This document shows, one piece after another, positions 6,500 to 58,916 of a stretch of 64,000 bases of DNA. Source of the stretch: Octopus vulgaris (Eukaryota); NCBI GenBank assembly GCA_951406725.2, contig OX597830.1, positions 44,268,001-44,332,000 on the forward strand, in the 5' to 3' direction. The notes beneath the pieces are model-generated. The model saw only the letters and a program-made list of their open reading frames with translations, was not told the origin of the DNA and did no database searches. How positions within the stretch are numbered: the first letter of the stretch is position 1; every line of letters starts with the position of its first letter. Made by a program: the position numbers and the translations under genes.

Positions 6500-8623
6500 C
6501 TCTTGTCCAAATTTGCTGGCTCGCGGTACATCCGCCCTCCCACACCCTCCATCTATACCGAAAGTTCCTATCCTTTGTCATCCTTCTAAAGGTTTAACAC
6601 CATCCCCACCCCTACCTAGGGTTTATCAATCATATAGTGCATAGAAATGATAGTGTAGTGTATGCAGGTTGAAGGCTACAGTTTGTTTATGAATTCTGCT
6701 AAATGCGAGGGACACTGCTGTCCCTCATCCCAGGGTTTCACGGGCCCTCACCTCCCACAGAGCTGGCACACTCAACGTCGGCATACTGAAAGGTAGGTCT
6801 GGTGAGATCGTTGAGATGCTTGAATGGAGATGTGTCGATTTGTGCTGCCTTCAAGAAGTAAGGTGGAGAGGAGGTTCCGCTAGATTCCTCACAGGCAAAG
6901 AACACAGGTGCAAGATTTTCTGGACAGGGAACACTAACAGGGTCGAGGGCGTGGGTATACTTCTTGTGGAGAAATGGGTTGATAAGGTAATCGAGGTACT
7001 CAGAGTATGTAACAGAATACTTAAGATTGGATTTGTGCCTCATCATAGTTTAGCAGCTATTATCTCGGCCTATGCCCCTCAACCAGGGCTACCTGATGGG
7101 CAGAAAGACCACTTTTATGACACCCTCTTGCAGACTACCTCGTTGACGAATGATAGGGACCTTCTCTTTGTGGCTGGTGACTTCAATGGACATGTTGAAC
7201 AACATGCAGGAGGCTTCCATGGAGGTTATGGTTTTGGTTCCCGCAATGAAGAAGGAACCACACTGCTGGAGTTCTGCGATGCAAATGATCTTATGGTTTG
7301 CAATACCAACTTCAGGAAACCTGACAGTCACCTAGGTACCTACCGTTCTGGCAGACACACTAGCCAAATTGACTACATCCTCACCAGAAAAAGAGAAAGA
7401 TGGCTGCTGATAAATGCCAAAACATTCCCAGAAGAATGTATCTCTCAACATAGACTAGTAGTTAGTGACTTCAGGATCAGGGCTAAATGGATGCCCAGAA
7501 GATGACCAGCATGGAGGAGAAGGGTCTGAAAGCTTAAAGATCCTGCAAATGGACAGAGATTTAGAGATATATTACTCAAAACCTTTGACGAAATAGAAGG
7601 GGATATAGCATCACATGATGTGGAAGACAACTGGGGGTTCCTACAGGACAACCTGCTGAGAGCCACTGACCAGATCTGTGGATGGTGCAAAGTCCCCTTT
7701 CAACCCAAAGTAACGTGGTTGTGGAACAATGTGGTTGACAGGGCTATTAGAAAAAAGAAACAGGCTTGGAAGGACTGGAAGAACGGTGGTAGCAGGGAAT
7801 TGTATCAGACTGCCAGAAGGGAAGCTAGGAGACAAGTTTATTTAGCCAGAAGGGAAGCAGATAAGAAAAAATTTGCCAATGTTCTGTACCATGAGAGAAT
7901 TGTGATGTTGTAGGAGAGAAATGTGTCCGCATGGATTATGGTTCACTTGCACTAAATGAGGCTGCAATGAGAGAGGTTTGCAGATGCCACTATGAAAAGT
8001 TGCTCAATAAAGAGAATGAATGGGAGAAAGAGAATCTGCTGAATGTTGACCCAACAGAGGGACCAGCTATCCGAATTGACAGTACCTTGATAGATAAAGC
8101 TATTAAGAATATGAAGATAGGGAAAGCCCCCGGTCCATCAGGAATTACCGCAGAGATACTCAAAATATCCGTTGGTGTCGGCTATAGCCTAGTCACTCAT
8201 ATTGTTAACCAGGTGATACATGAAGGAGTTATACCAAATGACTGGTGTAGCAGCATAATAGTCAACTGCTACAAAGATAAAGGTGACGCTTACAGAGGTA
8301 TCAAGTTGTGCCGGTCGTACGTGAAAAACAACATTCAAGTGAGGGCGTTGCCAGTGCCGCTGGACTGACTCCTGTGCAGGTGACACATAAAAACACCATT
8401 TGAGCATGGCCATTGCCAGTATTGGCTGACTGACCCTCGTGCCTGTGGCACATAAAAGCACCCACTACACTCTTGGAGTGGTTCGCATGAGGAAGGGCAT
8501 CCAGCTGTAGAAACTCTGCCAGATCAGATTGGAGCATGGTGCAGCCTACTGGTTTGCAATACCTCAGTCAAATCGTCCAACCCATGCCAGCATGGAAAGT
8601 GGACGTTAAACGACAATGATGAT
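6500..8623 (+). mobile_element. Degenerate RTE LINE retaining the APE endonuclease and 3'UTR but lacking the RT
   Basis: Motifs CCLQEVRW, GVGI, SAYAPQ, GDFNGH, SQIDYIL, HRLVV, KAPGPSG, with stops and frameshifts. Jumps from YRGIKL (~8307) to the 3'UTR and (GAT)n tail. The 5' boundary is approximate. Confidence 0.9.
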
Positions 8624-26402: not shown

Positions 26403-26628
26403 CATCCAGCTGCTGTTATTATCTTTCATTTCTCCCATCCAGATATTGTTCAGTAGAGATTGGCAAGCAGCATGAGAGATAAATTTCTTATTGTCTGCAT
26501 TTACTGCTATAAGCATACATGTGGCGTTGCTCCAGTTTTGCCGTTCTTGCACTAGTAAGTCTAATGCCATTTTTTCATCGGAAGAGTAACATTCAGTCAA
26601 AACTCCAATGGCACGTTCTTCAAAAAGA
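26403..26628 (-). CDS. TRPM: TRPM exon: LFEERAIGVLTECYSSDEKMALDLLVQERQNWSNATCMLIAVNADNKKFISHAACQSLLNNIWMGEMKDNNSSWM
   Basis: Splice sites ttttag|...|gtcagt; 226 nt, phase 2 to 0; classic MHR4/pre-S1 motifs. Confidence 0.95.
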
Positions 26629-28154: not shown

Positions 28155-31100
28155 CAGTGGTTCCCAAACTGTGGTCCGTGGACTCCCGGTGGTCCTCAAA
28201 GGTAGTACTGAAGGGTCCTTGAACTAAATTCAAAATTTCATAAATATATATAGAAGCACAATTAAAGGTTACAAACCTCATTCAAGGATAGCAGAATCCT
28301 ATGAAAGTACTGGTTAATTACCTATACAAAGAGTATTGAACATTATATCTAATACTTCACTGCAAGGTAACTATTTAAACTGTGGTTTATATATATTTTA
28401 TTTATCATAATAATAAGATGAGAGAATAGAGAGGTAATTAATGAATTACTATTTATTAATTAATTACCTGATCAAAGAGGGTGCCGAAAGAGATCAAAGA
28501 GGAGTCCCGACCGAGATCAAAGAGGGTGCCGAAAGAGATCAAAGAGAATTCCCGAAAGAGATCAAAGAGGGTAACGAAAAAGATCAAACAGGGTACCGAA
28601 AGAGATCAAAGAGGAGACCCGAACGAGATCAAAGAGGGTGCCGAAAAAGATCAAAGAGGGTAACGAAAAAGACCAAAGAGGGTGCCGAAAGAGATCAAAG
28701 AGGGTGCCGAAAGAGATCAAAGAGGAGTCCCGAACGAGATCAAAGAGGGGTGCCGAAAGAGATCAAAGAGGGTGCCGAACGAGATCAAAGAGGGTGCCGA
28801 ACGAGATCAAAGCGGGTGCCGAAAGAGATCAAAGAGAAGTCTCGAAAGAGATCAAAGAGGGAAACGAAAAAGATCAAAGAGGGTGCCGAAAGAAATCAAA
28901 GAGGAGTGCCGACAAAGATCAAAGATGAGTGCCGAAAAAGATCAAAGAGGTGTGCCGACAAAGATCAAAGAGGAGTGCCGACAAAGATCAAAGAGGAGTG
29001 CCGACAAAGATCAAAGATGAGTGCCGACAAAGATCAAAGAGGAGTGCCGACAAAGATCAAAGAGGAGTGCCGACAAAGATCAAAGAGGAGTGTCGACAAA
29101 GATCAAAGATGAGTGCCGACAAAGATCAAAGATGGGTGTCGACAAAGATCAAAGAGGAGTGTCGACAAAGATCAAAGATGAGTGCCGACAAAGATGGGTG
29201 TCGACAAAGATCAAGGAGGAGTGCCGACAAAGATCAAAGAGGAGTGCCGACAAAGATCAAAGAGTAGTGCCGACAAAGATCAAAGAGGAGTGCCGACAAA
29301 GATCAAAGAGGAGTGCCGACAAAGATCAAAGAGGAGTGCCGACAAAGATCAAAGAGGAGTGCCGACAAAGATCAAAGAGGGTGCCGAAAGAGATCAAAGA
29401 GGGTGCCGAACGAGATCAAAGAGGAAGTGCCGAAAGAGATCAAGGAGGAGTGCCGACAAAGATCAAATAGGAGTGTCGACAAAGATCAAAGAGGAGTGCC
29501 GACAAAGATCAAAGATGAGTGCCGACAAAGATCAAAGATAGGTGTCGACAAAGATCAAAGAGGAGTGCCGACAAAGATCAAAGAGGAGTGCCGACAAATA
29601 TCAAAGAGGGTGCCAAAAGAGATCAAAGAGGAGTGCCGACAAAGATCAAAGACGAGTGCCGACAAAGATCAAAGAGGAGTGCCGACAAAGATCAAAGAGG
29701 GTGCTGAAAGAGATCAAAGAGGAGTGCCGACAAAGATCAAAAGGAGTGCCGACAAAGATCAAAGATGAGTGTCGACAAAGATCAAAGAGGAGTGCCGACA
29801 AAGATCAAAGAAGGTGCCGAAAGAGATCAAAGAGGAGTGCCGACAAAGATCAAAGAGGAGTACCGACAAAGATCAAAGAGGAGTGCCGAAAGAGATCAAG
29901 GAGGAGTGCCGACAAAGATCAAATATGAGTGTCGACAAAGATCAAAGAGGAGTACCGACAAAGATCAAAGATGAGTGCCGACAAAGATCAAAGATGAGTG
30001 CCGACAAAGATCAAAGATAGGTGTCGACAAAGATCAAAGAGGAGTGCCGACAAAGATCAAAGTGTAGTGCCGACAAAGATCAAAGAGGAGTGCCGACAAA
30101 GATCAAAGAGGAGTGCCGACAAAGATCAAAGAGGGTGCCGAAAGAGATCAAAGAGGGTGCCGAACGAGATCAAAGAGGAAGTGCCGAAAGAGATCAAGGA
30201 GGAGTGCCGACAAAGATCAAATAGGAGTGTCGACAAAGATCAAAGAGGAGTGCCGACAAAGATCAAAGATGAGTGCCGACAAAGATCAAAGATAGGTGTC
30301 GACAAAGATAATAGAGGAGTGCCGACAAAGATCAAAGAGGAGTGCCGACAAAGATCAAAGAGGAGTGCCGACAAAGATCAAAGAGGAGTGCCGACAAAGA
30401 TCAAAGAGGGTGCGAAAAGAGATCAAAGAGGTGTGCCGACAAAGATCAAAGACGAGTGCCGACAAAGATCAAAGAGGGTGCTGAAAGAGATCAAAGAGGA
30501 GTGCCGACAAAGATCAAAAGGAGTGCCGACAAAGATCAAAGATGAGTGTCGACAAAGATCAAAGAGGGGTGCCGACAAAGATCAAAGAGGAGTGCCGACA
30601 AAGATCAAAGAGGAGTACCGACAAAGATCAAAGAGGAGTGCCGAAAGAGATCAGGAGGAGTGCCGACAAAGATCAAATAGGAGTGTCGACAAAGATCAAA
30701 GAGGAGTACCGACAAAGATCAAAGATGAGTGCCGACAAAGATCAAAGATGAGTGCCGACAAAGATCAAAGATAGGTGTCGACAAATATCAAAGAGGAGTG
30801 CCGACAAAGATCAAAGTGTAGTGCCGACAAAGATCAAAGAGGAGTGCCGACAAAGATCAAAGAGGAGTGCCGACAAAGATCAAAGAGTGTGCCGACAAAG
30901 ATCAAAGCAGGTGCCGAAAGAGATCAAAGAGAAGTCTCGAAAGAGATCAAAGAGGGTAACGAAAAAGATCAAAGAGGGTGCCGAAAGAGATCAAAGAGGA
31001 GTGCCGACAAAGATCAAAGAGGAGTGCCGACAAAGATCAAAGATGAGTGCCGACAAAGATCAAAGAGGAGTGCCGACAAAGAACAAAGATGAGTGTCGAC

Positions 31101-34100
31101 AAAGATCAAAGATGAGTGCCGACAAAGATCAAAGATGAGTGCCGACAAAGATCAAAGAGGAGTGTCGACAAAGATCAAAGAGGAGTGCCGACAAAGATCA
31201 AAGAGGAGTGCCGACAAAGATCAAAGAGTAGTGCCGACAAAGATCAAAGAGGGGTGCCGACAAAGATCAAAGAGGAGTGCCGAAAGAGATCAAGGAGTGC
31301 CGACAAAGATCAAATAGGAGTGTCGACAAAGATCAAAGAGGAGTGCCGACAAAGATCAAAGATGAGTGTCGACAAAGATCAAAGATGAGTGCCGACAAAG
31401 ATCAAAGATGAGTGCCGACAAAGATCAAAGAGGAGTGCCGACAAAGATCAAAGAGGAGTGCCGACAAAGATCAAAGAGGAGTGCCGAAAAAGATCAAAGA
31501 GGAGTGCCGAAAAAGATCAAAGTGGGTACCGAAAGAGATCAAAGAGGAGTGCCGACAAAGATCAAAGGGGGTACCGAAAGAGATCAAAGAGGAGTGCCGA
31601 CAAAGATCAAAGAGGAGTGCCGACAAAGATCAAAGAGGAGTGCCGACAAAGATCGGTGTCGACAAAGATCAAAGAGGAGTGCCGACAAAGATCAAAGAGG
31701 AGTGCCGACAAAGATCAAAGAGGAGTGCCGACAAAGATCAAAGAGGAGTGCCGACAAAGATCAAAGAGGAGTGCCGACAAAGATCAAAGAGGAGTGCCGA
31801 CAAAGATCAAAGAGGAGTGCCGACAAAGATCAAAGAGGAGTGCCGACAAAGATCAAAGAGGGTGCTGAAAGAGATCAAAGAGGAGTGCCGACAAAGATCA
31901 AAGAGGAGTGCCGACAAAGATCAAAGATGAGTGTCGACAAAGATCAAAGAGGGGTGCCGACAAAGATCAAAGAGGAGTGCCGACAAAGATCAAAGACGAG
32001 TGCCGACAAAGATCAAAGAGGAGTGCCGACAAAGATCAAAGAGGAGTGCCGACAAAGATCAAAGAGGAGTGCCGACAAAGATCAAAGAGGAGTACCGACA
32101 AAGATCAAAGATGAGTGCCGACAAAGATCAAAGATGAGTGCCGACAAAGATCAAAGATAGGTGTCGACAAAGATCAAAGAGGAGTGCCGACAAAGATCAA
32201 AGTGTAGTGCCGACAAAGATCAAAGAGGAGTGCCGACAAAGATCAAAGAGGAGTGCCGACAAAGATCAAAGAGTGTGCCGACAAAGATCAAAGAGGTGCC
32301 GAAAGAGATCAAAGAGAAGTGCCGACAAAGATCAAAGAGGAGTGCCGACAAAGATCAAAGGGGGTGCCGAAAGAGATCAAAGAGGAGTGCCGACAAAGAT
32401 CAAAGAGGAGTGCCGACAAAGATCAAAGAGGGTGCCGAAAGAGATCAAAGAGGGTGCCGAAAGAGATCAAAGAGGGTGCCGAAAGAGATCAAAGAGGAGT
32501 GCCGACAAAGATCAAAGAGGGTGCCGAAAGAGATCAAAGAGGAGTGCCGACAAAGATCAAAGAGGAGTGCCGACAAAGATCAAAGAGGAGTGCCGACAAA
32601 GATCAAAGAGGAGTGCCGACAAAGATCAAAGAGGAGTGCCGACAAAGATCAAAGAGGAGTGCCGACAAAGATCAAAGGAGTGCCGACAAAGATCAAAGAG
32701 GAGTGCCGACAAAGATCAAAGATGAGTGCCGACAAAGATCAAAGATGGGTGTCGACAAAGATCAAAGAGGAGTGCCGACAGAGATCAAAGAGGAGTGCCG
32801 ACAAAGATCAAAGAGGAGTGCCGACAAAGATCAAAGAGGAGTGCCGACAAAGATCAAAGAGGAGTGCCGACAAAGATCAAAGAGGGTGCCGACAAAGATC
32901 AAAGAGGAGTGCCGACAAAGATCAAAGAGGAGTGCCGACAAAGATCAAAGAGGAGTGCCGACAAAGATCAAAGAGTGCCGACAAAGATCAAAGAGGAGTG
33001 CCGACAAAGATCAAAGAGGAGTGCCGACAAAGATCAAAGAGGAGTGCCGACAAAGATCAAAGAGGAGTGCCGACAAAGATCAAAGAGGAGTGCCGACAAA
33101 GATCAAAGAGGGTGCCGACAAAGATCAAAGAGGAGTGCCGACAAAGATCAAAGAGGAGTGCCGACAAAGATCAAAGAGGAGTGCCGACAAAGATCAAAGA
33201 GGAGTGCCGACAAAGATCAAAGAGGAGTGCCGACAAAGATCAAAGATCAGAGTGCCGACAAAGATCAAAGAGGGTGCCGACAAAGATCAAAGAGGAGTGC
33301 CGACAAAGATCAAAGAGGAGTGCCGACAAAGATCAAAGAGGAGTGCCGAAAGAGATCAGAGGAGTGCCGACAAAGATCAAAGAGGAGTGCCGACAAAGAT
33401 CAAAGAGGAGTGCCGACAAAGATCAAAGATGAGTGCCGACAAAGATCAAAGAGGAGTGCCGACAAAGATCAAAGATAGAGTGCCGACAAAGATCAAAGAG
33501 GAGTGCCGACAAAGATCAAAGATGAGTGCCGACAAAGATCAAAGAGGAGTGCCGACAAAGATCAAAGAGGAGTGCCGACAAAGATCAAAGAGGTGCCGAC
33601 AAAGATCAAAGCAGGTGCCGAAAGAGATCAAAGAGGAGTGCCGACAAAGATCAAAGGGGGAGTGCCGACAAAGATCAAAGAGGAGTGCCGACAAAGATCA
33701 AAGAGGAGTGCCGACAAAGATCAAAGAGGAGTGCCGACAAAGATCAAAGAGGAGTGCCGACAAAGATCAAAGAGGAGTGCCGAAAGAGATCAAAGAGGAG
33801 TGCCGAAAAAGATCAAAGAGGAGTGCCGACAAAGATCAAAGAGGAGTGCCGACAAAGATCAAAGAGGAGTGCCGACAAAGATCAAAGAGGAGTGCCGACA
33901 AAGATCAAAGAGGAGTGCCGACAAAGATCAAAGATGAGTGCCGACAAAGATCAAAGATGGGTGTCGACAAAGATCAAAGATGAGTGCCGACAAAGATCAA
34001 AGAGGAGTGCCGACAAAGATCAAAGAGGAGTGCCGACAAAGATCAAAGAGGAGTGCCGACAAAGATCAAAGAGGAGTGCCGACAAAGATCAAAGAGGGTG

Positions 34101-37100
34101 CCGAAAAAGATCAAAGAGGAGTGCCGAAAGAGATCAAAGAGGAGTGCCGACAAAGATCAAAGAGGAGTGTCGACAAAGATCAAAGAGGAGTGCCGACAAA
34201 GATCAAAGAGGAGTGTCGACAAAGATCAAAGATGAGTGCCGACAAAGATCAAAGAGGAGTGTCGACAAAGATCAAAGAGGAGTGCCGACAAAGATCAAAG
34301 AGGAGTGCCGACAAAGATCAAAGAGGAGTGCCGACAAAGATCAAAGAGGAGTGTCGACAAAGATCAAAGAGGGTGCCGACAAAGATCAAAGAGGAGTGCC
34401 GACAAAGATCAAAGAGGAGTGCCGACAAAGATCAAAGATGAGTGCCGACAAAGATCAAAGATGGGTGCCGACAAAGATCAAAGAGGAGTGCCGACAAAGA
34501 TCAAAGAGGGTGCCGAAAGAGATCAAAGAGTAGTGCCGATAAAGATCAAAGAGGAGTGCCGACAAAGATCAAAGAGGGTGCCGAAAGAGATCAAAGAGGA
34601 GTGCCGACAAAGATCAAAGAGGAGTACCGACAAAGATCAAAGAGGAGTGCCGACAAAGATCAAAGAGGAGTGCCGACAAAGATCAAAGAGGAGTGCCGAC
34701 AAAGATCAAAGAGGGTGCCGAAAGAGATCAAAGAGGGTGCCGAAAAAGATCAAAGAGGGTGCCGAAAAAGATCAGGAATGTTTGGAATGTCAGGAATGTC
34801 TGGAATGTCAGGAATGTTTGGAACGTGAGGAATGTCAGAGATCAAAGACGGTGCCGACAGAGATCAAAGAGTGTGCCGACAAAGATCAAAGAGGGTGCCG
34901 ACAAAGATCAAAAACGGTGCCGATAGAGATCAAGGAGTGTGCCGACAAAGATCAAATACGGTACCGACAAACGGTTCAAACTGGATCAAGCATGATCAAA
35001 CCGGTTCAAATGTCAGGAATGTCAGGGATGTCAGGAATGTCTGGAATGTCAGGAATGTCCCGAATGTCAGGAATGTCTGGAATGTTTGGAATGTCAGGAA
35101 TGTCTGAAATGTCAGGAATGTTTGGAATGTCAGGAATGTCTGGAATGTCAGGAATGTTTGGAATGTGAGGAATGTCAGAGATCAAATACGGTGCCGACAG
35201 AGATCAAAGAGTGTGCCGACAGAGATCAAAGATTGTGCCGACAGAGATCAAAGAGTGTGCCGACAAAGATCAAAGCGGGTGCCGAAAGAGATCAAAGAGA
35301 AGTCTCGAAAGAGATCAAAGAGGGTAACGAAAAAGATCAAAGAGGGTGCCGAAAGAGATCAAAGAGGAGTGCCGACAAAGATCAAAGATGAGTGCCGACA
35401 AAGATCAAAGAGGTGTGCCGACAAAGATCAAAGAGGAGTGTCGACAAAGATCAAAGAGTGTGCCGACAAAGATCAAAGAGGAGTGCCGACAAAGATCAAA
35501 GATGAGTGCCGACAAAGATCAAAGAGGAGTGCCGACAAAGATCAAAGATGAGTGCCGACAAAGATCAAAGATGGGTGTCGACAAAGATCAAAGAGGAGTG
35601 CCGACAAAGATCAAAGAGGGTGCCGAAAGAGATCAAAGAGGAGTGCCGACAAAGATCAAAGAGTAGTACCGACAAAGATCAAAGAGGAGTGCCGACAACG
35701 ATCAAAGAGGAGTGCCGACTAAGATCAAAGTGGGTGCCGAAAGAGATCAAAGAGGGTGCCGAAAAAGATCAAAGAGGGTGTCGAAAAAGATCAGGAATGT
35801 CAGGAATGTCTGGAATGTCTGGAATGTCAGGAATGTTTGGAACGTGAGGAATGTCAGAGATCAAAGACGGTGCAGACAGAGATCAAAGACGGTGCCGACA
35901 GAGATCAAAGAGTGTGCTGACAAAGATCAAAGACGGTGCCGACAGAGATCAAAGACGGTGCCGATAGAGATCAAGGAGTGTGCCGACAAAGATCAAATAC
36001 GGTACCGACAAACCGGTTGAAACCGGATCAAACCGGTTCAAACTGGATCAAGCATGATCAAACCGGTTCAAATGTCAGGAATGTCTGGAATGTCAGCAAT
36101 GTTTGGAATGTCAGGAATGTCTGGAATGTTGGGAATGTTTGGAATGTGAGGAATGTCAGAGATCAAATATGGTGCCGACAGAGATCAAAGATTGTGCCGA
36201 CAGAGATCAAAGAGTGTGCCGACAAAGATCTAAGACAGTGCCGACAGAGATCAAAGACGGTGCCGACAAAGATCAAGTGCGGTCCCGACAAACTGGTTCA
36301 AACCAGATCAAACCGGTCCAAACCGGTTTAAACCGGATCAAACCGGTTCAAACTGGATCAAGCCTGATCAAACCGGTTCAAATGTCAGGAATGTCAGGAA
36401 TTTCAGTAATGTCTGGAATGTCTGGAATGTCAGGAATGTCTGGAATGTAAGGAATGTCTGGAATATCAGGAATGTCTGGAATGTCTGGAATGTTTGGAAT
36501 GTGAGGAATGTCAGAGATCAAAGACGGTGCCGACAGAGATCAAAGAGTAGTACCGACAGTGATCAAAGACGGTGCCGACAGAGATCAAAGAGTGTTCCGA
36601 CAAAGATCAAAGAGGGTGCTGACAGAGATCAAAGACGGTGCCGATAGAGATCAAGGAGTGTGCCGACAAAGATCAAAGACGGTGCCGACAGAGATCAAAT
36701 AGTGTGCCGACAAAGATCAAATACGGTGCTGACAAACCGGTTCAAACCGGATCAAACTGGATCAAACCAGATCAAGCCGGTTCAAACCGGATCAAACCGG
36801 TTCAAACTGGATCAAGCCTGATCAAACCAGTTCAAATGTCAGGAATGTCAGGAATTTCAGGAATGTCTGGAATGTCAGGAATGTCAGGAATATATATATA
36901 ATATATATACTACTTCATTTTATTAAACACTGTAAGTATTACATCAGTTTTAAAATGTCGAGCAATCTTCAGTCACATATAGAATTTTCTAGTTAAACGG
37001 ACAATGCACATTCTTATTCCTATTTCATATATATATACACACACACATAAGGATAAGCATATTAAATGGGGTCTGTGGGAAAACTCATTTAAATAAAAGG

Positions 37101-37114
37101 GTTGGGAACCAATG
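28155..37114. mobile_element. hAT/Charlie-type non-autonomous element enclosing the satellite
   Basis: Left TIR CAGTGGTTCCCAAACT (28155); right TIR GGGTTGGGAACCAATG (ends 37114). The 8-bp flanks agttaata and ggccaaca differ by four transitions, so a decayed TSD is possible but weak. Confidence 0.65.
28470..36891 (+). repeat. 8.4-kb compound satellite: 23/22-bp (GATCAAAGAGGAGTGCCGACAAA / GATCAAAGAGGGTGCCGAAAGA), 9-bp (GGAATGTCA/CT/TT) and 10-bp (AAACCGGTTC/AAACYGGATC) units
   Basis: Directly visible tandem array in TRPM intron 26629-37277. About 330 22/23-mers, estimated from length divided by period. The 9-mer and 10-mer blocks are confined to 34775-36891. Confidence 0.98.
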
Positions 37115-37378: not shown

Positions 37379-37831
37379 CTAGTAAAAGAAGCACTAAATG
37401 TTAACACATTGAAACAGGCAGAAGACGAATTAAACAACAACAATAACAATAACAACATGAAGAATGAAAATTGCTTTTGTTCTTTATTGATTAATTATGA
37501 ATTTAAATGTTGAAGTGAATCTAATAGTTTTTGTGTGTTTTTAAATGGCTTATAAACACCTTCCACGCTGCAATTGTTTTTATTCCAGCACACGATTTCA
37601 GATCAGGTCACATGCTATGCAAGTACATCTCCGTAATATGAATTTTAATGTTTCATATGAAACTATATACTTCTTCCTGGAAACATCAAAAAAGTTTTAA
37701 TAGGACATGGAACGATGAAAAGAGGTTGAATTATGAATGTCTGCATGTTTAAATGAGTCCATGAATTGAGTCACTCTATGCTCATTTATGCTCGGAGTGT
37801 TGAAAAAATGCAGTTTAAAATTGCATGAGTC

Positions 37832-38070
37832 AAATAAGCAAGCTGAGTCACATGGATAACCTGAGCTGTATGAACAAGATGAACTACATGAGCAAGCTGA
37901 GTAACATGAGTAAACTGAGCCACTTGTAAAAACTGAACCACATAAGCAAGTTAAGTTGTATGAGAAAGCTGAGCTACACGAGCAAGCTGAGCCACATGAC
38001 CAAGCTGAGCCACATGACCAAGCTGAACCACATGACCAAGCTGAACCACATGACCAAATTGAGCCATATC
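37832..38070 (+). repeat. 18-bp minisatellite (CAAGCTGAGCCACATGAC)n, degenerate
   Basis: About 13 copies, most homogeneous at the right end. Confidence 0.85.
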
Positions 38071-39653: not shown

Positions 39654-39742
39654 CATTCCTTCTTTCCAAAACAGAAATGCCATTTCTTGCCGGTTTAAAA
39701 GAACTGACCATAGAAACAATTCATTTGCAGGATAATTGAAGT
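39654..39742 (-). CDS. TRPM: TRPM exon: FNYPANELFLWSVLLNRQEMAFLFWKEGM
   Basis: Splice sites tttcag|...|gtaagt; 89 nt, phase 1 to 0; MHR4 motif. Confidence 0.94.
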
Positions 39743-43689: not shown

Positions 43690-45112
43690 TCTATGCTCTC
43701 ATTCATTCACATCATCTAACTGTTGAATAGGTGCAATGGTGAGGTACAGCCCATCACTGCAAACTGTTTGAGCACTGGATAACTAAAGTGTCTCATGATA
43801 GTCTCTAGCTGCATCAAGTTAAAGGTCTTCCCATTGAGAGATTCTTCAGATGGTTCCTCCCAAACAGTGGATTAAAGATCTTGAGAAGAGGACGGTAGTA
43901 TTACAGAACCTATTCAAGGTCGCATGGTGCCATCACCCTCTTCAACAAGATTGTGATAGAGAAAGAGTTGGCAGACTACCTGCCAACTATAAAATTTATT
44001 TCACGAGGGACCAAATTTGCAACAATCTGGTCGCTGTTTGGAACCCCGAGGAAGCTGGCAGATTTGCTAGTGAGCCCCTTGAGGGGCAAGAAATTTTGTT
44101 CCTCCCCACTTATTGTGGGAGGAGGGTGATAAAAGCCTGGGTATGTGGGCTACCTCCAGGCACAGAAGCAGGATGGATTGGTGATGTCATCTGGCAGGGT
44201 CTGGGGGATAGCAGGCCCAGGCTCTTAAATGTGAGAATGATGCCAGTGGTTGACTGGGAGGGATCAAAAGCAATTTTGACCTTATGGACTCCACACCCCC
44301 ACCCCGTGGCGGGGGAGATGGTGGAAGTTGTGACGGAAGTTGCCTCCATGAAGAGAAAAAGAAAGGTGAACAACAATGGTTGCTCACCAAATAATGTGCA
44401 GGCAGCACAGGATGCGGAGGGAGATAGTGTCTCCCCGAACCCACTGACACAGGTTCCTGTGCCTGCAACCTCAATGAGAAAGAGGAGAAGGGGGAGCAGG
44501 GTACAGTCAGTGGATGGCCCTTTGCTGCCTATTGAAGTGCTGGTGGGATGTGTGCCGCCAGTGCACGAGGCTCTGTCAGTGGGAGTTGTGCCACTGACAG
44601 AGCAGACAGAGAGCCCCCTTGAAGAGGAGGAGGATTTTATCCTCCTTTACCTCGAGGAGGGGGGGGACCTGTCGATGAATACTTGGGCGACCAAGAACTG
44701 GTGTTCTCAGCGTGCTCAAGCAGTCCAAGGTGGCCCCCGCAGGTAACTGCGGAGGTGGTGAGTTATAAATTGTGGCACTGTGTGACACAAACATTTGATA
44801 AAAGGCACTTCACCTTCTTCCTTCTGAACTCCTGGCTGTCAATGTGGTCTGCTCTGCAGGCGGCTAGATATTTGACTGGGGGTCCGGAAGGAGGAGGAAG
44901 GGAAAAGTGATAGTGTGTTTTTGATGTTTGATTAACTTTTTGATTTTTATGTAAGAAAAGAACCTGTGATTTCGAAGGGTGTTTGGTCTGTAGGTGCTGA
45001 ATACCCTTCCCATTTACATCATTCATATTTGTCATTTTCATCTCATTAATGTATATGTCCAGCCCGCATTGATTCTCTGTAAGGCCTTCACGGTCAATTT
45101 GATAAAATAAAG
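43690..45112 (+). mobile_element. Probable internally deleted non-LTR element (Tx1/L1-like) with an ORF1-like 298-aa frame at 43850-44746
   Basis: GC-richer block with a long ORF carrying basic NLS-like patches and a 3' end with AATAAA. The family assignment is inference. Confidence 0.45.
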
Positions 45113-45756
45113 AAGTTTGCTTCCCAGCCACACAATTCTGGGTTCAGTCCCACTGCATGACACCTTGGGCAAGTGTCTTCTACTATAACCTTGGGCCAAC
45201 CAAAGCACATGGTTATAGTAGAGTGGAAAGAAGCCTGTCATATATGTATGTGTGTGTGTGTTTGAGACTGTGTTTGTCTCCCAGCACCACTTTACAATCA
45301 GTATAGGTGTGTTTTTATCCTTGTGACTTAGCAGCTCGGTAAAAGAAACCAATAGAATAAGTGCCAGGCTTTAAAGAAAAAAGAACTGGGGTGGAATCGT
45401 TCGACCAAAATCCTTCAAAGTGGTGCCCCAGGTTGGCTGCAATCTAATAATAGAGGCAATTAAAGGACAAAAGCAAAATGATGAAAGATGCTGTCCCTCC
45501 AGCTCCCACTGGAAATTTTTCTTTATATTATTTCGTGTTCCAGAGGTAAAAGGTCAAATGAATAAAGAAGATAGCTACTTGTTAGGAGGTCAAGAGTTCA
45601 AACCGAGTGCACCCCTCAATCTAAATAACTGATACAAGACAGAGATTTATCTCCCAACTGAGTAAAGTTAAGAAACTAGAATTTCGCAAATTAGATCATA
45701 AGAAAGTTCTTCAGGTCTCAGGAAATATTCAGACAGAGATGTTAAACTTTACTTAC

Positions 45757-45891
45757 CCTGTTATATAATTCTTTAAGACAGTCTCTGGTTAAGAATTTCT
45801 TCAAAGTAACTCCATATTCCATGAAAAGTTTGACAAAGTCAACACGATCTTCATGGAGGGCAAATGACATAAGATTATCCAATGAGCCAGT
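45757..45891 (-). CDS. TRPM: TRPM exon: [45 protein letters not shown]
   Basis: Splice sites tctcag|...|gtaagt; 135 nt, phase 0 to 0; DRVDFVKLF...FLT...LxELY motif. Confidence 0.94.
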
Positions 45892-56635: not shown

Positions 56636-58760
56636 CATCATCATCATCATGATGATCATCATCATGATGATCATCATCATTTAACGTCCGCTTTCCATGC
56701 TAGCATGGGTTGGATGGTTCAACTGGGGTCTGGGGAGCCCGAAGGCTGCACCAGGCCAGTCAGATCTGGCAGTGTTTCTACAGCTGGATGCCCTTCCTAA
56801 CGCCAACCACTCCGAGAGTGTAGTGGGTGATTTTATGTGCCACCGACACAGGTGCCAGACGAGGCTGGTGAACGGCCACGCTCGGATGGTGTTTTTATGT
56901 GCCACCGACACAGGTGCCAGACGAGGCTGGCGAACGGCCACGCTCGGATGGTGTTTTTATGTGCCACCGACACAGGTGCCAGACAAGGCTAGCAGACGAC
57001 CACGCTCGGATACGTTCGGATGGTTTTCTCGTGTGCCACCGGCACTGGTACCATAAAGATACAAATTCCATTGATGTTCATCTATTTTGATTTTGTTTGA
57101 TTTTTTGATTTGATTTGATTTTGATTTGATTTGATTTTCACTTGCCTCAACAGGTCTTCACAAGTGTCACAAGAAGGAAGGTATGCACAGGTGGACTGAC
57201 TACGTCCCAGGTAGGGGCCACGGGTTATGGCCTGACTAGTCTTGCCGGGTCTTCTCACGCACAGCATACTTCCATAGGTCTTGGTCTCTAGTCATTTCCT
57301 TGGTGAGACCTAAAGATCGAAGGTCGTGCTTCACCACTTCGTCCCAGGTTTTCCTGGGTCTACCTCTTCCACAGGTTCCCTCAACTGCTAGGGTGTAGCA
57401 CTTTTGCACACAACTATCTTCAGCCATTCTTGTCATATGACCATACCAGCGCAGCCGTCTCTCTTGCACACCACAACTGACGCTTCTTAGGTTCAACTTT
57501 TCTCTCAAGGTACTTACACTCTGACGATTATGAACACTGACATTACACATCCATCGGAGCATACTGGCTTCATTTCTTGCGAGCTTACGCATATCCTCAG
57601 CAGTCACGGCCCATGTTTCACTACCATGTAGCATGGCTGTACGTACACATGCATCATACAGTCTGCCTTTTACTCTGAGCGAGAGGCCTTTTGTCACCAG
57701 CAGGGGTAAGAGCTCTCTAAACTTTGCCCAGGCTATTCTTACTCTAGCAGTTACACTTTCAGCACACCCACCCCCGCTACTGACTTGGTCTCCTAGGTAG
57801 CAGAAGCTATCAACTACTTCTAGTTTGTCTCCCTGGAACGTGGTAGAAGTTGGTCTCTGCACGTTTCCAGAGTTTATTTCTCCTGAGCATCTGCCACATA
57901 CGAAAACTATCTTCCCAGTTAGCCTACCTTTGACATTGCTGCACCTCTTATGTGTCCATAGCTTACACTTGGTGCACCTTATAGAGTTTCTACCTACACC
58001 TTTTTTACAGATCGAGCAGGGCCATCTACCTGAAGTCGTTTGTGGTTGGTCCACCTTCCTACTTATTAGGACTTTGGTTTTGGCTAGGTTGATTCTAAGG
58101 CCCTTCGATTCTAATCCTTGTTTCCACACCTGAAACTTCTCCTCCAGTTCTGATAGTGACTCAGCAATTAGAGCAAGGTCATCAGCATAGAGGAGCTCCC
58201 AGGGGCATCCTGTCTTGAATTCTTCCGTTATTGCCTGGAGGACTATGATAAATAGGAGGGGGCTGAGGACTGAACCTTGGTGGACCCCAACCTCTACCCG
58301 GAATTCTTCACTGTACTCGTTGCCTACCCTCACCTTACTAGCAGCGTCTCTGTACATGGCTCGCACAGCTCTCACTAACCATTCATCTATCCCTAGTTTC
58401 CTCATTGACCACCAGATAAGGGATCGGGGGACCCTGTCAAAGGCTTTCTCCAAGTCAACAAAAGCCAGGTACAAGGGCTTACCTTTGGCTAGGTATTTCT
58501 CCTGCAGCTGTCTTACCAGGAATATAGCATCAGTAGTACTTTTCCCTGGCACGAACCCAAACTGCATATCATCTAAGCTAACTCTCTCTCTAATTAATTG
58601 GGCTATAACCCTCTCCGTAACCTTCATTACCTGATCCAACAGCTTGATGCCCCTGTAGTTATTTGTATCTAGGGCGTCACCTTTACCTTTGTAGCAGTTG
58701 ACTATTATGCTGCTACACCAGTCATTGGGTATGACTCCTTCGTGTATCACCTGGTTAACA
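56636..58760 (-). mobile_element. Young 5'-truncated RTE-clade LINE with 3'UTR and (ATG)n tail
   Basis: Uninterrupted RT ORF, three ~60-bp tandem repeats in the 3'UTR (56830-57010), (CAT)n tail, possible tgttt TSD. Confidence 0.93.
57236..58750 (-). CDS. RTE reverse transcriptase, 5'-truncated, 504-aa open frame with an inserted C4HC3 finger
   Basis: Motifs NYRGIKLL, QFGF, FVDLEKAFD, GVHQGSVLSPLLF, YADD, FCYLG, RLRWYGH, GRGRPRKTW. Confidence 0.92.
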   Translation of the reverse strand: MIHEGVIPNDWCSSIIVNCYKGKGDALDTNNYRGIKLLDQVMKVTERVIAQLIRERVSLDDMQFGFVPGKSTTDAIFLVRQLQEKYLAKGKPLYLAFVDLEKAFDRVPRSLIWWSMRKLGIDEWLVRAVRAMYRDAASKVRVGNEYSEEFRVEVGVHQGSVLSPLLFIIVLQAITEEFKTGCPWELLYADDLALIAESLSELEEKFQVWKQGLESKGLRINLAKTKVLISRKVDQPQTTSGRWPCSICKKGVGRNSIRCTKCKLWTHKRCSNVKGRLTGKIVFVCGRCSGEINSGNVQRPTSTTFQGDKLEVVDSFCYLGDQVSSGGGCAESVTARVRIAWAKFRELLPLLVTKGLSLRVKGRLYDACVRTAMLHGSETWAVTAEDMRKLARNEASMLRWMCNVSVHNRQSVSTLREKLNLRSVSCGVQERRLRWYGHMTRMAEDSCVQKCYTLAVEGTCGRGRPRKTWDEVVKHDLRSLGLTKEMTRDQDLWKYAVREKTRQD

Positions 58761-58916
58761 CCTGTTTATTTCTAGAATACATTGTAAGAGGCCAGATCCA
58801 GCCAATTTGAACATAAAACAGAATATTTGGGCCAAATATTGGTTGATTGAAATGCTAAAGATTTAAACAGTATAAATTTGCTCTGCCAGTAATTAGATTA
58901 TGGAATATTTACAGAC

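Follow-up and report, generated by a model that had tools for sequence, protein, structure and literature searches.

Does the long run of TCF-like sites in a TRPM intron of Octopus vulgaris serve that gene, or does it belong to something of wider occurrence in the genome? The stretch of 64,000 nucleotides analysed here (the window) had been predicted to hold about 275 tandem bipartite TCF sites, each an HMG site with a Helper site for the C-clamp domain, and a Wnt-dependent function in TRPM expression was implied. The features concerned are as follows.

26472..26627, − strand: TRPM exon on the downstream side of the array, covering PF25508 positions 206-257
28157..28469, no strand: left flank, a fragment of a high-copy non-autonomous element; the array truncates it, and the sequence that normally follows is missing
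28470..34774, + strand: main block of T units (22/23 bp), HMG-type site AAGATCAAAGA, 4-5 bp spacer and Helper-like GCCGA(C/A)A, in AK5/AK4 and KK0 arrangement
34772..34838, + strand: first block of E units, 9-bp GGAATGTC(A/T), with TEAD double-motif spacing
34839..35008, + strand: T units, then a short run of 10-bp units
35009..35178, + strand: E block, ~19 units
35179..35790, + strand: T block, ~27 units
35791..36891, + strand: alternating E, T and 10-bp blocks
35791-35857, 36071-36159, 36381-36514 and 36835-36891, + strand: E blocks of this tail
35855-36010, 36157-36290 and 36512-36734, + strand: T blocks of this tail
36009-36072, 36289-36382 and 36733-36836, + strand: 10-bp AAACCGG(T/A)TC blocks, Grainyhead/CP2-like
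36892..37113, no strand: right flank, a different portion of the high-copy element family seen at the left flank, without the ~60 bp that other copies have ahead of it; target-site duplication absent
39657..39737, − strand: TRPM exon on the upstream side of the array, covering PF25508 positions 144-170
45742..45888, − strand: further upstream TRPM exon (PF25508 positions 12-60)

Composition and dispersal of the array

The predicted array is real, with 277 tandem units counted between 28470 and 34776 (214 of 23 bp, 49 of 22 bp and 14 of other lengths), all on the + strand and 120 of them identical to the commonest unit sequence. AGATCAAAG was present in 253 units, and GATCAAAG, which fits the HMG site CTTTGWWS, occurred 254 times. 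Several details of the original prediction needed correction: GCCG, said to flank every HMG site, was found in 226 of the 277 units, with GTCG in its place 27 times and an RCCG count of 236; the array does not end at 34774, as TRF extended the repeat to 35793 and mixed blocks reach 36891; the listed spacer GACGGT had no copy within 28470..34774 and 10 in the tail; and neighbouring sites do not share one DNA face, since 23 bp make 2.19 turns at 10.5 bp per turn, an offset of ~68 degrees. The TEAD-like and Grainyhead-like blocks and the genome-wide family were absent from that account. An internal duplication (29255-29598 and 30009-30352) was detected, and the share of the commonest unit climbed from 9 to 26 per 40. 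The CpG observed/expected ratio was 0.91 in the array versus 0.29 in the remainder of the window, which may mean nothing more than a young insertion. A protein-coding repeat was rejected, as the 22/23-bp units shift frames and TGA variants break them; the longest open stretch (591 codons) results from a unit without stops.

Genome-wide, a 20-base pattern of the monomer gave 4,459 exact matches, and its control gave none. The 17 T loci inspected, on nine contigs and in unrelated DNA, accounted for 872 of these matches (~20% of T units). The same units recurred in differing orders and orientations at C11:20.8, C15:40.7, C18:20.3, C13:65.4/65.5, C1:15.1, C8:91.7 and C2:215.5. The arrays inspected are dispersed and 1-35 kb long, some stopping at assembly gaps, and outside the window MEF2-, POU- and STAT/ETS-like units join the network. 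Copies of the T family were also located inside what we take, by eye, to be Gypsy-like sequence and a SINE, as well as inside telomere-like tracts (touched by three arrays) and other repeats. The block in the TRPM intron is one copy of a dispersed, shuffling minisatellite network of about ten unit types.

Site geometry, motif matches and conservation

Orientations are named according to the probes listed in the PMC4154663 supplement. Every 23-mer combines one HMG site with a Helper-like site 5 bp away (AK5 one way, KK0 the other way). In the block, AK5 was found in 179 units and AK4 in 35 on one side, with KK0 on the other; at 15 loci, AK4 (914) and AK5 (586) made up most of 1,527 pairs, and KK0 1,409 of 1,415. 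For fly TCF, AK5 was the configuration first shown to raise binding, AK6 has the best IC50 (5.1 nM) with KK0 intermediate, and the favoured arrangements are AK near 6 and FF0, with AK2-9 in human. The comparison with high-affinity fly configurations that the original prediction called for places AK5/AK4 and KK0 close to the best fly geometry. The Helper also fits the worm GCCRAnW as predicted, with 223 such sites in the block. The full fly/human Helper (GCCGCCR/RCCGCC) had no copy there, the Helper being GCCGACA/GCCGAAA, and full activation by the fly Helper is described as depending on all seven bases. The outer S of SCTTTGATS was present in only 7 HMG sites of the block. Among 400,000 shuffled 23-mers, CTTTGWWS appeared in 1.5% and CTTTGWWS with RCCG in AK2-9 in 0.08%, percentages that are not genome-wide p-values because the unit was noticed for looking like a TCF site.

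A host TCF gene, found through the HMG family, encodes the expected four-cysteine C-clamp (G000:C6:42738546 and 42731645; cysteines one and two separated by 12 residues, downstream of the HMG exons, with exon joining inferred). A genome search for the beta-catenin-binding Pfam family returned no match, with no control giving a signal either. In 337 kb of other DNA, nine lone HMG 8-mers and no AK4-5 pair were detected, suggesting by extrapolation that the satellite probably holds most AK4-5 HMG-Helper pairs of the genome. On sequence grounds, the reading of the units as putative bipartite TCF sites is partly supported.

No part of the T unit is better kept than the HMG site. Single-copy variants were even across the 23-mer (~11 per position), whereas amplified variants numbered 1.8 per position in the HMG site versus 11.7 in the spacer; the corresponding p of 1e-10 is inflated because amplified variants are common to loci by descent. 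For GCCG, conservation did not exceed that of the spacer (p=0.25 for the ratio of amplified to singleton variants; rotation rank 12 of 23), which is largely the outcome that the original prediction had named as counting against itself. Its view that variation concentrates in the spacer holds in that the spacer varies, but positions 16, 17, 21 and 23, in the Helper and its tail, vary too. In rotation tests (without the duplicate locus C17:56.8 and with no more than 60 windows per locus), the TCF core ranked 2 of 23 and the TEAD core 1 of 9; motif positions were not better kept in the 10-, 13-, 21- and 52-bp units (8/10, 8/13, 19/21 and 27/52), and conservation over the eight modules combined was not significant (p=0.27). 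The 21-bp figures were lower than in a separate tally, probably owing to mixed windows.

For the E unit, RMATTCC recurs every 9 bp, the TEAD double-motif period, with 38 overlapping doubles in the window's tail, and the 10-bp unit carries the Grainyhead/CP2-like CNRG-N6-CNRG at period 10. A 16-motif panel, about half of it picked after seeing the units, matched 8/10 linked units versus 1/28 other repeat units (1.4 expected). Among independent, non-ascertained units 5/7 matched (p=4e-6 raw, 0.01 when scaled for a panel representing a sixfold larger number of families, and 0.11 at twelvefold scaling). The 13-bp CCAAATAGCCAAC and 14-bp TCAAACATCTTTCA were linked units with no match in the panel, and a test written down in advance yielded, from four new loci, one new unit without a motif match as read by eye. 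Unit pairs sharing a family (the 9- and 59-mer; the 13- and 18-mer) have mainly the motif itself in common. NF-kB was not counted, the 52-bp consensus being one base off the strict consensus, with exact sites in variants; no usable short-form consensus for MEF2 or CP2 was obtained from PMC10300182 and PMC2873413.

Junctions, spread and competing explanations

The insertion interrupted a young high-copy repeat, whose left part is presumably a hAT-like MITE. Among 13 arrays with both ends available, ten share at most 11 bp between flanks, two share only telomere-like repeats and one has a long flanking duplication, and the flanks of different arrays are unrelated to one another. At 57 array ends (~20% of T units), no carrier element was recognized from shared termini, coding sequence or target-site duplication; the flanks had nothing in common except for a single segmental duplicate, tracts of telomere-like sequence, a local duplication and short repeats of common kinds. 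An empty-site check of the left flank plus 31 array bases against four runs gave no contig that qualified as bridging the junction; in one, the shorter side measured 29 bases.

The explanation that we favour, at about even confidence, is a dispersed, shuffling satellite network whose units would bind transcription factors, like human HSat3 with TEAD. Junctions and internal duplications suggest that templated copying at DNA breaks would most likely have spread it, with unequal exchange enlarging it afterwards. The 23-mer would probably be bound by TCF through the HMG domain and probably also the C-clamp, the 9-mer probably by TEAD as cooperative pairs, and other units perhaps by Grainyhead/CP2, MEF2, POU and STAT/ETS factors. 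In a more speculative step, binding probably influenced the choice of units that amplified, for the TCF and TEAD cores at least; one conceivable route is that arrays kept open, unmethylated and clustered might recombine with one another. The likely effect would be a platform or sink for factors, any local effect on TRPM being a by-product at most. We entertain only tentatively, and with some doubt, the fullest form of this proposal: a carrier-free, self-shuffling toolkit, each module offering near-optimal sites for one signalling or developmental factor (TCF in C-clamp geometry, TEAD pairs, Grainyhead/CP2, MEF2, POU, STAT/ETS), selected via factor binding, pasted at about a hundred places, serving there as a mobile enhancer, a sink or a nuclear hub, and holding most perfect bipartite TCF sites of the genome.

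The role implied at the outset, a host-selected Wnt-responsive super-enhancer of the TRPM gene, is very improbable. The exons at 26472..26627 and 39657..39737 do place the array in a TRPM intron, the geometry is good, the host TCF has a C-clamp, and short synthetic HMG-Helper multimers drive fly Wnt reporters; natural Wnt elements, however, are said in PMC3916239 to have no dense clusters of perfect HMG sites. The insertion disrupted a young repeat, and the T family also lies within the Gypsy-like, SINE, telomere-like and other repeats. In the TRPM paralogue (C17:56.88 Mb), the same two exons are ~2.2 kb apart, too short for the 8.4-kb array. With the family at so many unrelated places, the link to TRPM is weak and the array is no element specific to TRPM. 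An artefact of assembly or contamination with synthetic reporter DNA, suggested by the likeness of the units to TCF, TEAD and MEF2 reporter probes, is largely refuted and scarcely credible: natural variation is graded over 2,288 units at 15 loci, the array sequence occurs in seven runs of five studies under three organism labels (0.30-0.46 of words; one possibly the assembly's own sample), and summed read depth over the unit was very high in 4/4 runs. No RNA run containing the array sequence was among the matches listed.

A serious alternative, which we nevertheless hold improbable on balance, is a neutral satellite network in which motif likeness reflects chance and selective noticing and any binding is without consequence. 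The combined conservation test, the unconserved Helper, the panel result under the harshest scaling, the two of ten linked units and the one prospectively found unit that match nothing, and the C-to-T and G-to-A changes in the 10-mer, explained by CpG decay as well as by CNRG tolerance, agree with it; the excess of panel matches in linked over control units, the fitting motif spacing in three families, the unit pairs with chiefly a motif in common and the avoidance of the HMG core by amplified variants speak against it. Rather unlikely, though compatible with the favoured network, is that the units are enhancer repeats escaped from some large mobile element or from an endogenous virus, selected there as binding sites and now self-amplifying. 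A closed set of about ten units recurs, as from one source, and enhancers of viruses and LTR elements typically carry near-optimal sites for many pathways, but the modules stand in no fixed order, the array ends inspected share no flank apart from the exceptions given, viral and metagenome contigs gave no matches (collections that would hardly contain such an element), and the rDNA spacer is excluded as a source, one 18.6-kb rDNA unit having no match for six motifs.

Comparison with known systems and significance

Tandem repeats carried by Helitrons or LTR elements can give rise to satellites, and the octopus family resembles such satellites in forming several dispersed short arrays, as from one source, whereas no carrier element was found beside the inspected arrays. 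Targeted insertion has been linked to NR2C/F-bound telomere repeats in ALT cells. These variant repeats offer a proposed precedent for factor-bound repeats that meet and are copied to new places, although the ALT case is a cancer-cell process with one repeat, unlike the octopus network, and the role of NR2C/F has been argued, in PMC7691514, to be indirect. Human HSat3, which binds TEAD and is proposed as a multi-factor platform or depot in PMC11526998 and 10.1101/2025.05.02.651992, is likewise a tandem repeat made of factor motifs at high copy, TEAD included, a likeness known here from sequence. HSat3 is described there as a single unit built on 5 bp, forming megabase arrays that are pericentromeric and close to rDNA, whereas the octopus has some ten unit types of 9-59 bp, unrelated to one another and each bearing a motif of its own, mixed in arrays that, among those inspected, are 1-35 kb long and dispersed, apparently through the arms, and an rDNA unit without the motifs. 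Fly, worm and human bipartite TCF sites (PMC4154663, PMC4267635, PMC3916239, PMC3896468 and PMC4999783) share with the array an HMG site, an RCCG-containing Helper in AK5/AK4 and KK0, and a TCF with a C-clamp, but natural Wnt elements have a few degenerate pairs where the array has hundreds in tandem, and the octopus GCCGA(C/A)A differs from the known GCCGCCR and is not preferentially conserved. RMATTCC every 9 bp matches the cooperative spacing of the TEAD double motif as given in PMC12008814, there one pair in an enhancer and here runs of 5-30 sites.

Were they bound, the thousands of perfect bipartite TCF sites, together with TEAD pairs, could serve to buffer Wnt and Hippo effectors or to concentrate them, and each new insertion would be a ready multi-pathway enhancer at a new place; the array may thus soak up or gather Wnt, Hippo and other regulators. 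Whether transcription factors drive which satellites arise and spread would become a testable question, for which several unrelated units provide replicate cases within one family.

The array and its TRPM setting

The block of tandem bipartite TCF sites put forward in the original prediction proved real, with 277 units on a single strand at 28470-34776, of which 253 contained AGATCAAAG and 226 contained GCCG. The proposed start and main block held, whereas the proposed end fell short, as the 23-bp array reaches 35793 (TRF) and is continued up to 36891 by a tail in which blocks of three kinds alternate, built from a 9-bp unit, a 10-bp unit or the 22-bp form. The array is intronic, because TRPM exons, all on the minus strand, lie around it:

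45742-45888, minus strand, TRPM exon
39657-39737, minus strand, TRPM exon
26472-26627, minus strand, TRPM exon

The array splits a high-copy element, with DNA lost on both sides of the insertion. Its CpG observed/expected ratio was 0.91 versus 0.29 in the remaining window, a lack of CpG decay that fits either absent methylation or a young insertion. In addition, an 18-bp repeat at 37826-38066, probably non-coding intron DNA, has an open frame of QAEPHD-type repeats. The window also harbors the reverse transcriptase of a non-LTR retroelement, carrying a PHD-like finger (57236-58765, minus), and an endonuclease fragment (6693-8368, plus). A G+C-rich patch holds an open frame of 302 codons (43838-44746, plus) that matched no Pfam family and is perhaps part of a retroelement. 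The TRPM paralogue set is expanded (contig C17: 42.96, 43.07, 44.29, 56.88, 67.61 and 79.31 Mb; C9: 99.3 Mb), and the regions at C17:56.8 and 79.2 Mb resemble two copies produced by a segmental or haplotype duplication.

Site geometry, host TCF and constraint

HMG-Helper pairs were compared with the orientation and spacing classes defined in fly. The 23-mer divides into 11 + 5 + 7 bases without remainder and therefore reads as AK5 in one direction and as KK0 in the opposite one; the 22-mer corresponds to AK4. Within the 28470-34776 block, AK5 occurred in 179 units and AK4 in 35, and across 15 loci the two classes together covered 1,500 of the 1,527 pairs counted. According to PMC4154663 and its supplement, the AK6 probe consists of a reverse HMG site, 6 bp and the Helper, the KK0 probe of the Helper followed by a reverse HMG site without a gap, and AK5 is the configuration of the first demonstration of the Helper effect; the IC50 was 5.1 nM for AK6, 39-67 nM for the group including KK0, and 292-969 nM for HMG alone. 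The Helper matched the worm consensus as predicted (PMC3916239) and the short RCCG core (PMC4267635), and GCCGCC was absent among array Helpers. Moreover, the host TCF gene on contig C6 encodes the expected four-cysteine C-clamp, split across two exons further down from the HMG exons, with a cysteine spacing that agrees with PMC3896468. Its second HMG exon occurs in two tandem versions (G000:C6:42769099 and 42758056; L067-L068), which points to alternative exons whose basic tails differ. CpG methylation of the Helper reduced binding in a preliminary human test (PMC4267635).

A total of 2,288 units, drawn from 15 loci, were used to count position conservation. Consensus match was 94-98.5% at the nine HMG positions, 85, 89, 94 and 96% at the GCCG positions, and 48-95% at the six spacer positions. 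Single-copy variants were evenly spread along the unit (about 11 per position), but the density of variants amplified within a locus was 1.8 per position for the HMG site, 7.8 for GCCG and 11.7 for the spacer. Since loci have variants in common by descent, the HMG p-value, although very small, overstates the significance. The idea that GCCG is kept above the spacer was not borne out (amplified variants, p=0.25), and in a rotation test over 12 loci the HMG core ranked 2/23 and RCCG 12/23. Taken together, the data point to constraint on the HMG site but not on the Helper. By eye, a GTCCCG-type variant was concentrated at array ends at several loci, as though older variants survive at array edges.

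A dispersed mosaic of motif-like units

Tracing which units lie within 150 bp of one another linked ten unit types into a network. The 9-mer repeats RMATTCC each 9 bp, the spacing of cooperative TEAD double motifs (PMC12008814), and the 10-mer carries AACCGGTT, yielding CNRG-N6-CNRG as in Grainyhead and CP2 sites (PMC5829564). The window's tail contained 52 TEAD-type sites, including 38 overlapping doubles, and the 59-mer carries an inverted TEAD pair. By the usual consensus motifs, we take the 13-mer and the 18/20-mer to contain MEF2 sites, the 21-mer a POU octamer, and the 52-mer STAT and ETS sites; one 13-mer and one 14-mer matched no panel motif.

The panel comprised 16 motifs, eight seen and eight not seen in the units, and matched 8/10 linked units versus 1/28 controls, an imperfect comparison as the controls are short, low-copy repeats. 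Nine of the controls came from 387 kb of DNA elsewhere, and the other 19 were units at family loci that were either small or unlinked; variants of the 22/23-bp T unit and the 9-bp unit were excluded. Five of seven independent units outside ascertainment matched (raw p=4e-6; 0.01 at sixfold and 0.11 at twelvefold panel scaling for post-hoc choice). A prospective module search at four new loci returned known units and a single new one, which was G-rich and matched nothing. Arrays of 17-34 kb with alternating MEF2-like and octamer-like units were seen at C18:20.27-20.30 Mb, C1:15.08-15.10 Mb and C8:91.73 Mb, and a 35-base MEF2-unit pattern had 1,875 exact genome-wide matches. At L037 (C14:63.37 Mb) and L084 (C4:171.13 Mb), two further repeats, one AT-rich with a 13/37-bp unit and one of 32 bp, occur close to T arrays but are not chained to them, and neither matched a panel motif.

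A 20-base monomer pattern had 4,459 exact genome-wide matches (control, 0), of which 872 fell in 17 inspected T loci on nine contigs; by extrapolation, the family may occupy roughly 90 loci. Array flanks were unrelated, comprising retroelement fragments, SINE fragments, telomere-like tracts and AT-rich DNA. Two C17 loci share a common flank (98% over 719 bp) and each lie about 105 kb from a TRPM paralogue, and were thus counted as one duplicated insertion. Among 13 arrays with both ends, ten had no flank duplication, two shared telomere-like repeats only, and one had a long duplication. Three arrays are embedded in, or directly abut, telomere-like (CCCTAA)n tracts, at L034 (C9:35.73 Mb), L036 (C11:26.14 Mb) and L078 (C15:40.66 Mb); 282 kb of other DNA gave only two such matches, both at one locus. 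An rDNA spacer was excluded as the source of units; tandem rDNA at G000:C20:23.96-24.07 Mb (L125-L126) has a unit of about 18.4 kb with 141-bp and 189-bp spacer repeats.

Origin of the network and rival readings

The arrays make up a network of minisatellite units that have been shuffled and dispersed, and they show internal duplication and homogenisation. Their arrival resembles capture at DNA breaks more than transposition, since the window's array interrupts an element with DNA loss on both sides, and units were probably inserted at such breaks by templating. An escape of units from an enhancer of some unnamed element is rather unlikely, as the 57 array ends inspected showed no carrier. An artefact is hardly credible: tail words were present at 0.30-0.46 in seven sequencing runs (five studies, three organism labels), and summed unit depth, which is not copy number, was very high in 4/4 runs examined. 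A Wnt enhancer specific to TRPM, suggested by the intronic position, is highly improbable for so dispersed a family.

A neutral likeness of the units to transcription-factor sites is a somewhat stronger candidate, though still doubtful. In rotation tests, motif positions were best kept in the 23-mer and 9-mer only; motifs ranked 7/59 in the 59-mer and 5/18 in the 18-mer, positions in the 10-, 13-, 21- and 52-mers were no better kept, and all unit types combined gave p=0.27.

The reading that joins a shuffled network, break insertion, TCF/TEAD binding and factor-driven clustering has, in our judgement, about an even chance of being right. Literature listings and the openings of abstracts showed no published description of the family, and genome-paper repeat libraries, Dfam or Repbase may list the units. 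Human HSat3 binds TEAD and more than a dozen factors (PMC11526998) and is a possible TEAD depot (10.1101/2025.05.02.651992). The octopus network would work as HSat3 does but, unlike it, is scattered through the genome as a mosaic whose units are unrelated to one another. TCF and TEAD probably bind the units and, more speculatively, could hold arrays open and draw them together, which would explain why unrelated units mix and why the TCF/TEAD cores are spared.
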